A DNA stretch of 64,000 nt from Candidatus Bathyarchaeota archaeon (GTDB taxonomy: Archaea; Thermoproteota; Bathyarchaeia; Bathyarchaeales; Bathycorpusculaceae), in assembly GCA_963782525.1 (NCBI GenBank), contig CAWAKC010000006.1, positions 1 through 64,000 on the forward strand, read 5' to 3'. The stretch's first letter is position 1, and the number at the start of each line of letters is the position of its first letter. Made by a program: the position numbers and the translations under genes. The notes under the pieces are model-generated. The model was not told the DNA's origin. It did no database searches and was given only the letters and a program-made list of their open reading frames with translations. Positions 9,899-12,061 of the stretch are shown one piece after another.

Positions 9899-12061
9899 TC
9901 ACGTATATGATTTATTTAACCAATACCAAAGAGTGACATCCTGACCTCCAACTCCATCATCCCACCCACTTGTTACGCCATCGGAACCTTGGTCTCCGCC
10001 AAACTTTTCATACCATGAGCCTGTTTTTACATTGAAGTAAAAATACACACCTAGAGGGTCAGTTCGTGGGTTCGTAGCATTATTCCATCCACCAGTAAGG
10101 TCTAAGTCCTGACCTATCCAGAACGGAGCAGGATATGAAGGGTCACGAGCAGTTATTTCAATGATAACTTGAGTGTTATTATCTGGAATATTATAGGAAA
10201 TTGTCCAATTCATAACGTAGGAAGTCATGTCATCTGGACATGTGTAAGTTGCTTGTTTAAGGAGATTACCTGAAACATCTTTAATCCTCACCGTAAAAGT
10301 TACATCGTAAATAGTTGCTCCAAACTCTGTAGAGTTGGTTGTCATTTTAGAAAGGTTTACGTTTAACCAAATATCATGAAGAGGATCCAAATCTACTCCA
10401 TCAACGAAGCCATCTCCATCGGAATCGAAATAAGAAGGTACATTCGGATTTGAGCCTGTTTGTATTTCATAACCATCTGATAAGCCATCGTTATCCGTAT
10501 CGCTTTTAATTGGATTAGTCAAATATACGTTCACCTCAGCACCATCTTTTAGGCCATCATAATCTGTGTCTGGATTTTGTGGATTTGTCCCATATGAACC
10601 ATAAACTTCGATGTAATCGTTAAGTCCGTCTTTATCTGTGTCGTTCGAGGATGGGTCTAGACCTCTAAGTGCTTCTTCTCTATCTAAAAGTCCATCATTA
10701 TCTGAGTGCTTTTGATATAGTAAGAAGACTTGGTCACCCTTGGTAAGCCTGGCATCAAAAATATTTGGAGGTAAATTACTTTTAGAAGGCAAAATAATTT
10801 CCCAATATGCAGTATCGTTGATTTGAAAGCCGCCTATGCTCTTTACTAAGTTACCTTCAAGCATCAGATTTGCATATTTTTTCAAGAAGTCTACAACAGT
10901 TATATCTTTATCAGAATAATAGTTAGTTATTACTTGTTTTCCATTATCGATATCAAGTCTAATACAAGTATCCTTTACATTTTGCAAATACGCCCAATCT
11001 TGTTCGCCGAGGTCATATTTTGCCACTTCAATTCTAACGGGCACTCCCGATTCTATTTGTTTAAGGATTTCACCTGATAAACACTTTTCGAATTCAATAT
11101 TAATTGCTATGCTCTTCCCTGGCTCAAGATTCGCAATACTTGACCCCTGATAATTATTTGCAAAACTCCAAGTCTTTATCGGTTGTTTTCCAGCTCCAAC
11201 ATATAGGTATAACCATATGTCCGATGGGTTTGATTTAATGATGTCTGTTCCAATATTTTGGACGTACATTGTTGTTCTTAAGTAAGAATTGCTAAAGTCA
11301 ATCGACTGTATTTTACTCCATGATTCTACCGAAGCGAGTTGGTATCGTTGCGAGGTGTTAGTTACAATAGTGTTAGTTTGAGAGCATTCGAATGTATCTT
11401 TCACATATCCATATGGACCTAACTTGAAACCTGCTTCAGCTTCAAGGGTATTTGAAAAATTGGTAGTAGTTGTTTCTAAAGTATTGATGCTGTAATCATA
11501 ACTATTGGATTTAATTGTTTGGTTTGAAGATGTAATATCTTCTGCAAACCAAATTGTGTAACTGTCACTCAACGTTATTTTAAGAGCAGGATAAGCTGGA
11601 ATTAACGGGGTATTCCAAGGACTTTTTACAAAAGAATAGACTTGGTTGTTATATTCCGTCCAATCATCATATCGGTCACCATCAGTGTTTTTGTTTAGTG
11701 GATTTGTTCCTATTTGATTCTCCAAATTATCTGATAGCCCATCGTTATCAGAATCAAGTGTTAAAATCGTCGTTGGTGATGGCGTATAGGTAGGTGTTTG
11801 TGTCACTGTCGGTGCAGTGGTCGGAATATAATTTGTGGGGGCTGGAGTGTTTGTTGATGTCGGCGCCGGACTATAGCTCTGCTGAGGGATTAGACTTGAA
11901 GAAAAACTTGGTGTGGCAGCGATAGTTGGGTTTGAGGTTGGTGTTGGGGAAATAGTAATAGGGTTGTTAGTTGGCGTGACTGCGAAGAAAACTCCCGATA
12001 AATACAGTATTATTACTGCTACAAGAATAATTGGAACTGCTGCAATAAAATATTTTTTCAA
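9899..12061 (-). CDS. Membrane-anchored/secreted protective-antigen (binary toxin B)-like protein with DxDxDG Ca-binding repeats
   Basis: N-terminal TM/signal, Pro/Thr/Ser linker, DSDNDGLSD, TDGDRYDD...PLIPAYP, Ser/Thr-rich hairpin, W...YLRTTMYVQNIGT, then tandem DTDxDGLxD repeats. Confidence 0.65.
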   Translation of the reverse strand: MKKYFIAAVPIILVAVIILYLSGVFFAVTPTNNPITISPTPTSNPTIAATPSFSSSLIPQQSYSPAPTSTNTPAPTNYIPTTAPTVTQTPTYTPSPTTILTLDSDNDGLSDNLENQIGTNPLNKNTDGDRYDDWTEYNNQVYSFVKSPWNTPLIPAYPALKITLSDSYTIWFAEDITSSNQTIKSNSYDYSINTLETTTTNFSNTLEAEAGFKLGPYGYVKDTFECSQTNTIVTNTSQRYQLASVESWSKIQSIDFSNSYLRTTMYVQNIGTDIIKSNPSDIWLYLYVGAGKQPIKTWSFANNYQGSSIANLEPGKSIAINIEFEKCLSGEILKQIESGVPVRIEVAKYDLGEQDWAYLQNVKDTCIRLDIDNGKQVITNYYSDKDITVVDFLKKYANLMLEGNLVKSIGGFQINDTAYWEIILPSKSNLPPNIFDARLTKGDQVFLLYQKHSDNDGLLDREEALRGLDPSSNDTDKDGLNDYIEVYGSYGTNPQNPDTDYDGLKDGAEVNVYLTNPIKSDTDNDGLSDGYEIQTGSNPNVPSYFDSDGDGFVDGVDLDPLHDIWLNVNLSKMTTNSTEFGATIYDVTFTVRIKDVSGNLLKQATYTCPDDMTSYVMNWTISYNIPDNNTQVIIEITARDPSYPAPFWIGQDLDLTGGWNNATNPRTDPLGVYFYFNVKTGSWYEKFGGDQGSDGVTSGWDDGVGGQDVTLWYWLNKSYT

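Follow-up and report, generated by a model that had tools for sequence, protein, structure and literature searches.

The window analysed here is the whole stretch of 64,000 nucleotides at positions 1 to 64,000 of contig CAWAKC010000006.1, from the genome of a Candidatus Bathyarchaeota archaeon (assembly GCA_963782525.1), and the gene under study is an intact one, a single uninterrupted open reading frame (ORF) of 720 codons with a TTG start at 9899-12061 on the minus strand. Its product is a genuine, very distant relative of the anthrax protective antigen (PA) and of the B components of other binary toxins, and this resemblance represents homology, not chance. A reading of the same DNA made earlier without database searches, hereafter the sequence-only reading, had proposed a membrane-tethered, PA-like pore-forming protein carried by an archaeal provirus, and the coordinates that it assigned to the ORF were exact. 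The gene and its product, whose residues are numbered in amino acids (aa), are organised as follows, with the basis of each assignment in brackets:

9899..12061, minus strand: whole ORF, 720 aa plus stop, TTG start (ORF list and sequence)
11981..12061, minus strand: aa 1-27, basic N-terminus and hydrophobic helix (hydropathy maximum; N-termini of relatives)
11768..11980, minus strand: aa 28-98, Pro/Thr/Ser-rich stalk (composition)
10706..11767, minus strand: aa 99-452, PA-like module, colinear with PA63 domains 1', 2 and 3, domain 3 at the fold level only (HMMER, hhalign, AlphaFold2/Foldseek)
11612..11767, minus strand: aa 99-150, domain-1'-like twin Ca2+ site (alignments to PA)
11327..11536, minus strand: aa 176-245, Ser/Thr-rich amphipathic beta-hairpin with the tip KLGP, matching the PA 2beta2-2beta3 stem in position and length (alignments, model strands, composition)
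10388..10705, minus strand: aa 453-558, bacterial TSP3 Ca-binding repeats (PF18884)
9902..10387, minus strand: aa 559-720, predicted C2-like beta-sandwich, kept in close relatives (model and Foldseek)
9885..9898, minus strand: T-rich tract that includes seven consecutive T and immediately follows the stop codon (sequence read)

The T-rich tract looks like an archaeal terminator signal, and the gene stands alone, being convergent with an ORF encoding a protein of about seven hydrophobic segments (8544-9308) and divergent from a block of genes starting at 12671.

When the protein was used as a single sequence, searches of Pfam, NCBIfam and PHROGs and a phmmer search against PDB found nothing except the Ca repeats, and the homology to PA is therefore visible only with family profiles. 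Relatives were collected by a word-index search with aa 125-450, which gave 8 relatives of 46-53% identity among 3163 candidates, and by a full HMMER scan of 1.84 billion cluster representatives, which gave 67 proteins at an expectation value (E) <=1e-3, 21 at 1e-10 and 8 at 1e-30. A profile of 31 sequences, consisting of aa 96-720 of the query and 30 relatives, matched two PA-63 chains when compared with PDB chains by HMMER (E=6.3e-18 and 7.1e-18), pairing profile positions 122-331 with chain residues 7-229; the next match was an unrelated Ca-repeat protein at 3.9e-5. The alignment paired the first Ca motif, the TDGDRY-D motif, the PLIPAYP strand, the whole hairpin and the ESW...NIGT segment with segments of PA, which sustains the first four of the motif matches put forward in the sequence-only reading (DSDNDGLSD, TDGDRYDD...PLIPAYPALKI, the hairpin and ESWSK...YVQNIGT). 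The last two, DWAYLQNVKDTCIRL and DITVVDFLK, recurred in an hhalign comparison with the pagA product only as the tail of a longer alignment, and these putative pairs, being without statistical significance when taken separately, do not count as evidence in their own right. A 7-sequence profile beginning after the first Ca motif still matched 15 distinct PA sequences with E values from 6.5e-5 to 4e-3, and it also matched Vip4 (E=6e-4).

Profile-profile comparisons extended this correspondence. The 31-sequence alignment matched the pXO1 pagA product by hhalign with 97.2% probability (E=4e-11) over 288 columns, covering PA precursor residues 202-559, and a global hhalign of a 29-sequence alignment of the module gave 95.9% and PA precursor residues 199-635. 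The module alignment was also cut into pieces that were compared with PA separately, with hhalign runs in reversed column order as the control. The piece aa 96-455 gave E=1.9e-8 against E=0.076 for its reversed control, whereas aa 150-455, without the Ca motif, gave a weak match (E=1.5e-3, 17% probability, reversed E=0.067) that was colinear with PA precursor 281-403. For aa 246-455, 280-455 and 340-455, values of E=0.05-0.09 were obtained against 0.17-0.23 in the reversed controls, and the best local matches were not colinear. The second half of PA domain 2 and domain 3 are reached in the global alignment, which extends to PA precursor 635, whereas the sub-profile aa 246-455 was non-significant.

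The fold of the module was assessed with an AlphaFold2 model of aa 96-720, built from the 31-row alignment, which had a mean predicted local distance difference test (pLDDT) score of 81 and a predicted template modelling score (pTM) of 0.66. Foldseek comparison of this model with PDB produced 137 matches at E<=1e-3, and every one of those listed down to rank 48 was a B component of a binary toxin, with a probability of 1.00 throughout. The top match was the Ib pore (E=4.8e-19), and CDTb (2.8e-17), the PA channel (8.1e-14), Vip1 (8.1e-14), the PA pore 3j9c (3.2e-13) and monomeric PA 3tez (4.5e-12) were also recovered, monomeric and prepore forms thus being matched as well. Identities among the listed B components were 10-16%, and 11-16% against PA and the clostridial B components. 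Alignments of 421-455 columns covered the targets that comprise only domains 1' to 3 (355-423 residues), with template modelling (TM) scores by target length of 0.41-0.47. These B components at the top of the structural search, together with the PA-63 and hhalign matches, bear out the claim of a genuine PA or binary-toxin-B homolog. The opposite outcome, that is, a similarity limited to DxDxDG repeats with no structural match to PA domains 2 and 3, does not hold for domain 2, while for domain 3 the model points to a correspondence at the fold level. A two-copy complex prediction of aa 96-455 scored 0.00, which counts neither for nor against assembly.

The elements on which the activity of PA depends were compared in turn. 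In the domain-1'-like part, D103, D105, D107, L109, E114 and D133 align with D177, D179, D181, I183, E188 and D235 of mature PA, which we take to be ligands of two Ca ions, and D105, D107 and D133 are nearly invariant in the family alignment. The HMMER and hhalign alignments traverse the hairpin of domain 2 with small gaps only, its length equals that of the PA hairpin, and Ser and Thr make up 31% of its residues, compared with 14.5% of those elsewhere in the module. In the model it would form a 50-residue two-stranded ribbon with strands of about 25 and 21 residues (model residues 92-117 and 121-141). The whole module was matched contiguously by 29 of the 76 stored proteins, and all 29 of these full-module relatives keep the alternating polar/apolar pattern of the hairpin, many with aromatic tips such as GWPPWKSG. 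About 35 distant relatives, most of them giant, have an insertion of 100-400 residues that interrupts the profile match at the hairpin; in P0020 (aa 168-562) and P0039 (aa 183-569), the inserted part is of about 400 residues and includes a Gly/Ala/Leu-rich hydrophobic segment of sufficient length for membrane helices. The site of the hairpin may be a variable membrane-active element across the family.

The phi-clamp of PA appears to have no equivalent. F427 of PA corresponds to precursor residue 456, and its phi-clamp loop aligned to a gap in the 31-sequence hhalign and to Ile320 in the global one; no conserved aromatic residue was found at this place in the 29-sequence alignment. The conserved features near the clamp position are L312, P314, Y287 (29/29), W298 (22/29), Y349 (25/29) and Y358 (25/29), and the segment from NIGT to the DW of DWAYL is about 20 residues shorter than in PA. 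We conclude that the classical Phe clamp is probably absent, with low alignment confidence in that stretch. F324, the invariant Phe of the motif N-x-E-F, was considered as a clamp residue and dropped, as it lies inside a strand just before a helix in the model, in a core-like position. The Pfam scan detected no PA14 match in the protein, in which a transmembrane helix and the Pro/Thr-rich stalk precede domain 1'. The pro-domain is thus replaced by the stalk, as had been proposed, and since there is no PA14 pro-domain to remove, the module is equivalent to the already activated PA63. The close relative P0007 (849 aa) does have a PA14 domain (PF07691, precomputed), which lies, unlike that of PA, on the C-terminal side, before the C2-like domain.

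Downstream of the module, where PA has its receptor domain, two different elements were found, in agreement with the proposal that this domain had been replaced. The TSP3 repeats matched PF18884 with 85.3 bits against a cut-off of 25 (E=2.3e-24) in 5 stretches of the protein, and the best NCBIfam matches, CglD (52.5 bits against a cut-off of 400) and MtsD (31.1 against 800), came via these repeats only. A separate model of aa 555-720 (pLDDT 79, pTM 0.80) contained ten strands and had 22 Foldseek matches at E<=1e-3; nearly all of those listed were C2 domains, including those of plant CAR4, OsGAP1, PKC-eta, MCTP2, intersectin, cPLA2 and synaptotagmin, with TM-scores by target of up to 0.63. This domain is kept in close relatives, with Asp/Gly-rich loops conserved in their alignment. 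The C-terminal domain is therefore modelled as a C2-like beta-sandwich in the place of the PA receptor domain, and lipid binding is predicted for it.

At the other end of the protein, the top 19-residue hydropathy windows of the whole sequence begin at residues 6-11, and the stalk has 16 Pro, 20 Thr and 10 Ser among its 71 residues (46/71), which confirms the helix and the stalk described earlier. As judged from its residues, aa 1-27 would be either a signal anchor or a signal peptide, uncleaved or cleaved, and it reads LSGV at the position where several relatives have the lipobox LSGC. The N-termini of close relatives consist of a transmembrane helix, a lipobox (LSGC, TGGC or TSGC) or a cytoplasmic zinc ribbon followed by a transmembrane helix. 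Because of these anchors and lipoboxes, membrane attachment to the producer is considered a property of the family, and the proposed membrane tether finds support in them. In the lipoprotein relatives, the lipidated Cys precedes the first Ca motif by only about 20 residues. The distant relatives are giants of 1000-3300 aa in which CARDB, FG-GAP, Ig-like and beta-propeller domains occur; among 30 that were scanned, CARDB was found in 5 and TSP3 in 25.

The combination of these parts was compared with that of known systems. The protein shares with PA63, Ib, CDTb and C2-II the colinear twin-Ca site of domain 1', a stem hairpin of equal length in domain 2 and the overall fold. It differs from them in its identity of 11-16%, in having no PA14/PA20 pro-domain, no Phe clamp and no PA-type receptor domain, in being anchored to its producer with no A component found, and in going unrecognised by the Pfam models of these proteins. 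It is thus set apart from the classical B components, as it lacks the pro-domain, the clamp, the partner, the solubility and the Pfam match that characterise them, and it is filed as a new, divergent branch of the superfamily (Bacterial_exotoxin_B) and not as a binary-toxin B component. In perforin-type proteins, a beta-pore module is followed by a C-terminal C2-type sandwich that binds Ca and lipid and brings the pore module to the membrane; the analogy is one of layout only, since the pore module of perforin has the unrelated MACPF fold. The myxobacterial CglD and MtsD share the TSP3 repeats only, and the PA-like module is not part of those families. Vpb4Da2, a Vip4-type protein of Bacillus thuringiensis, has no conserved Phe and recruits no enzyme (PMC8687597). 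The archaeal protein resembles Vpb4Da2 in that neither a phi-clamp Phe nor an enzymatic partner was found for it; the Vip4 chains are among its weak profile matches, and in both proteins the C-terminal part differs from the PA receptor domain. On the other hand, Vpb4 is a secreted soluble protoxin of a Firmicute that has a protease-cut PA14 domain and acts on the insect gut, whereas the archaeal protein begins with an anchor and stalk in the place of PA14 and ends in TSP3 repeats followed by a C2-like domain. In the BECb pore (CPILEb) of Clostridium perfringens, the narrowest point is formed by serines, and BECb alone is enterotoxic (PMC12297211). The B-type fold thus works as a plain pore without a Phe clamp. 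The archaeal protein, with its probable lack of a Phe clamp, is likened to BECb from this published description; BECb differs in its partner enzyme and in being secreted.

The genes around the PA-like gene bear on the question of who uses it. To its left are a weak tape-measure-like ORF, a Laminin_G_3 protein, a 2H phosphoesterase, the protein with about seven hydrophobic segments and, in a tail-collar/tail-fibre block at 5687-7339, a protein of this type that matches PF07484 (6.9e-18) and 15 PHROG tail families. To its right are a gene resembling the terminase large subunit at 14068-15516 (phrog_2, 3.6e-36) and an ABC-type ATPase, followed farther on by SMC-like, ResIII/PLD helicase, radical-SAM and DndB-like genes. 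A tyrosine-type integrase at 36014-37294 (PF00589, 73 bits) adjoins a tRNA-Pro(GGG) gene at 37367-37445 and marks the right end of a region of low guanine-cytosine (GC) content. The values are 0.34-0.40 over 8-36 kb, whereas the tail block has 0.43-0.46 and the sequence past 36 kb 0.40-0.47. The PA-like gene therefore lies within a variable, inserted region in which genes of viral origin are present. A search of window positions 1-40000 for an att-like direct repeat of the tRNA-Pro end found none, and the contig starts inside the inserted region. Synteny with two same-genus genomes stops at about 39.86 kb, where neither of them has a tRNA-Pro gene, and an empty site was not found. No HK97 capsid or portal family was detected in the whole genome with Pfam models, which may miss archaeal versions.

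Of 61 genus genomes, 52 contain the terminase-like gene; its matches number up to 11 in a genome (8 here) and often lie at contig ends. The gene belongs to a module of about 4.8 kb (window positions 12430-17224) comprising the ORFs 12671-13111, 13095-13406, 13641-14111, 14068-15516, 15513-15803, 15800-16621 and 16552-17253. Another genome of the genus has a counterpart of 81% identity, with neither tail genes nor a PA-like gene adjacent to it, and the closest related terminase modules in two other genomes have no PA-like gene beside them. The behaviour of the module is that of a mobile element in repeated copies and not of a single provirus. Homologs of the PA-like gene are found in different surroundings, namely between Mrr/AAA-ATPase genes and a polysaccharide-synthesis cluster at locus L007, and among housekeeping and polysaccharide genes at locus L004; nothing except the PA-like gene is common to the four loci compared (the window and three others). 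The idea of lysogenic cargo held in part. The low-GC stretch, the tail-collar and terminase-like genes and the integrase at tRNA-Pro speak for it, and the absence of HK97 capsid and portal matches, the multicopy terminase module, the non-viral character of the two informative homolog loci and the lack of relatives in the viral collections IMG/VR and BFVD speak against it. An accessory gene of variable islands, located here at the joint of two mobile modules, fits the data better. Among the 20 neighbouring ORFs scanned (window 1-27.5 kb) no candidate secreted enzyme was found, in agreement with the earlier remark that no A-component enzyme is nearby; an unlinked partner may exist.

The host is an archaeon. 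Its genome (2.87 Mb, 12 contigs, 95.8% complete) has a 16S rRNA gene that scores 1487.8 bits with the archaeal model, which wins the clan competition, and the contig itself belongs to the archaeal lineage, as its glucan phosphorylase gene (41223-43397) has orthologs of 71-87% identity in five same-genus genomes. The distribution of the PA-like gene is very sporadic, as befits an accessory gene. It was found in 2 of 201 genomes of the order, its own included, in none of 17 same-genus genomes, and in 1 of 401 genomes of a phylum sample, again its own only. The GTDB species representatives provided 1 relative among 15 pattern candidates and the JGI metagenome contigs 2 among 28; IMG/VR provided none among 46, and BFVD contained no PA-like fold, its top match being a 105-column TSP3 alignment. 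Among sequencing runs, four DNA runs shared small fractions of words (0.05-0.11) and no RNA run was listed, a result that bears neither on expression nor on habitat. The only other copy in the order, at L004, comes from a metagenome-assembled genome labelled 'Candidatus Bathyarchaeota archaeon' and is a pseudogene (2900-5000), with an in-frame TAA inside the hairpin, a broken 5' part and 3' frameshifts after the TSP3 repeats.

Between the two functions named in the sequence-only reading, a beta-pore or a translocase, a beta-barrel pore is the best-supported mechanism, and we give about an even chance to the interpretation that the protein is a stand-alone, Ca-dependent, lipid-targeted pore-former held at the cell surface, which would act like the phi-clamp-less Vpb4 and not as a translocase of the AB type. 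According to this mechanism, the N-terminal anchor and the Pro/Thr stalk of about 70 residues would hold the PA63-like module at the surface, and Ca2+ would be bound by the twin site of domain 1' and by the TSP3 repeats. The C2-like domain would then dock the protein on a lipid surface, the protomers would form a ring, and the Ser/Thr-rich hairpins (aa 176-245) would rearrange to build a long beta-barrel stem that crosses a membrane with its hydrophobic tip, resulting in a leak pore. The tether joins domain 1' at its N-terminus, an end that in PA63 sits on top of the cap, opposite to the stem and far from its tip. With this geometry and the short tether of the lipoprotein relatives, the stem would point away from the producer, and the membrane of another cell is therefore the preferred target. 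The membrane struck would most likely belong to a neighbouring cell attacked on contact, or it would be one that the protein reaches once the stalk has been cleaved.

Several observations weigh against this interpretation, and some of them favour a different one. The sequence signal alone ends at about aa 275, and the second half of domain 2 and domain 3 come from AlphaFold and Foldseek alone, since the sub-profiles were non-significant. None of 7 central modules matched any Pfam binary-toxin model at E<=10, and the PF03495 match of the query reached 13.1 bits against a cut-off of 25 and was located on the TSP3 region (aa 474-538); among 30 distant relatives, 3 did match PF03495, with a best E of 8e-10 and with P0039 above the cut-off (30.5 against 25 bits). 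The TM-scores of the Foldseek matches were low (0.27-0.34 relative to query length, 0.26-0.47 relative to target length); values of about 0.3 by query are to be expected when a 625-residue model includes a free hairpin and additional domains, and they still are a weakness. The pLDDT of the hairpin was 50-62, and a conserved Asp (in VKDTF) of its descending strand is on the side that would face the lipid. The data establish the homology, the architecture, the conserved Ca site and hairpin, the C2-like fold and the sporadic distribution, whereas the ring, the pore, the lipid binding and the target are what we infer, and a permanently anchored pore-former would be unusual for the PA/binary-toxin-B superfamily. 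Moreover, adhesion proteins typically have TSP3 repeats as well as CARDB and Ig domains like those of the distant relatives. These last features lead to the main rival explanation, distinctly less probable and still to be taken seriously, in which the protein is a non-lytic surface scaffold or adhesin, the module being a Ca-stabilised structural or ring unit that serves attachment, cohesion or S-layer-associated architecture, with a hairpin that always stays out of membranes. It is favoured by the TSP3 repeats being the sole confident family matches, by the link through them to CglD and MtsD, which function in cohesion and gliding, by the domains of the giant relatives, by the permanent anchor and by the polysaccharide-biosynthesis genes beside the gene at two other loci. 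However, an alternating hairpin of 70 residues, the length found in PA, with hydrophobic or aromatic tips, is kept in 29 relatives and would be needless for an adhesin, the top Foldseek match is a B component in the pore state, the C2-like domain suggests contact with lipid, not with protein or glycan, and the Gly-rich hydrophobic insertion at the hairpin site of some giant relatives again suggests membrane insertion.

Other explanations concern the user of the protein or a cargo. The position of the gene between the tail block and the terminase-like gene is a frequent site of lysis or moron genes in tailed viruses, and it lies on the opposite strand with a GC content of 0.34-0.38, below that of the tail block, both of which would suit a virus function on the producer itself, either a pore for egress or lysis or a surface protein for superinfection exclusion. 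We regard this as improbable, considering the absence of relatives among 46 candidates in IMG/VR and of PA-like matches in BFVD, the non-viral loci L004 and L007, the closest terminase modules in two other genomes with no adjacent PA-like gene, and a tether in the lipoprotein relatives that, on the geometry of PA, is too short for the stem to reach the membrane of its own cell. A true AB-type translocase, in which the ring threads a separately encoded enzyme or another macromolecule into the target cell, would account for the domain order 1'-2-3 of PA63, for a docking surface left exposed by the missing pro-domain and for a stem of PA length, and is nevertheless very unlikely, because the phi-clamp loop has a gap or an aliphatic residue opposite it and no conserved aromatic, the NIGT-DWAYL segment is shortened, and neither a secreted enzyme among the 20 neighbouring ORFs nor a neighbour conserved across the four loci was found. 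Hardly more can be expected of a contact-dependent intercellular conduit, a speculative variant in which a ring hung by its cap, with its mouth facing the producer and its stem in the neighbour, would let ions, metabolites or even polymers pass, and which would represent the ancestral, cell-bound form of the secreted binary-toxin translocases of Firmicutes.

Full-text literature on PA, binary toxins and archaeal homologs, in the sections that were available, contained no archaeal PA-like protein, and supplementary tables may list one as a hypothetical protein; likewise, the available text of two papers on Bathyarchaeia viruses mentions no such gene. The literature matches on the PA/binary-toxin fold concerned toxins of Bacillus, Clostridium, Paenibacillus and Brevibacillus or unrelated work. 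PA-type proteins have so far been described only in bacteria, and the archaeal member appears to be new. As this fold is among the best-studied protein-conducting pores, an archaeal relative would widen its known range, and its archaeal form, which is tethered, free of pro-domain and clamp and provided with a C2-like end, would be a minimal, pre-activated model of stem formation. It would also point to pore-based antagonism among sediment archaea. The module has been found in 67 or more representative proteins, a good many of which are giant and located at the surface, and the toxins may accordingly be a minor side branch of a wider surface-protein family.

Some other genes of the window deserve mention. 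The 2H phosphoesterase at 7842-8480 on the plus strand, of the 2'-5' RNA ligase superfamily (PF13563, 9.5e-16), has no hydrophobic N-terminus and may be a counter-defence enzyme. The ORF 8544-9308, on the plus strand and convergent with the PA-like gene, encodes 254 aa with about seven hydrophobic segments and no family match. Such a convergent arrangement is known for the immunity genes of pore-forming colicins; as a candidate immunity gene, this ORF was rejected, having no counterpart at the three other loci (L004, L007 and L008). A defence-island-like run at 17718-25701 includes an AAA_23/SMC-like ATPase (673 aa), a ResIII helicase with a weak PLD-like match (701 aa), a zinc-ribbon protein, a weak radical-SAM match and a DndB-like protein. 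Finally, the overlapping ORFs 15800-16621 and 16552-17253 both match ABC-type ATPase families and are separate in another genome too (94% and 89% identity), and as both pieces are conserved separately there, the split of this ATPase is no local error.

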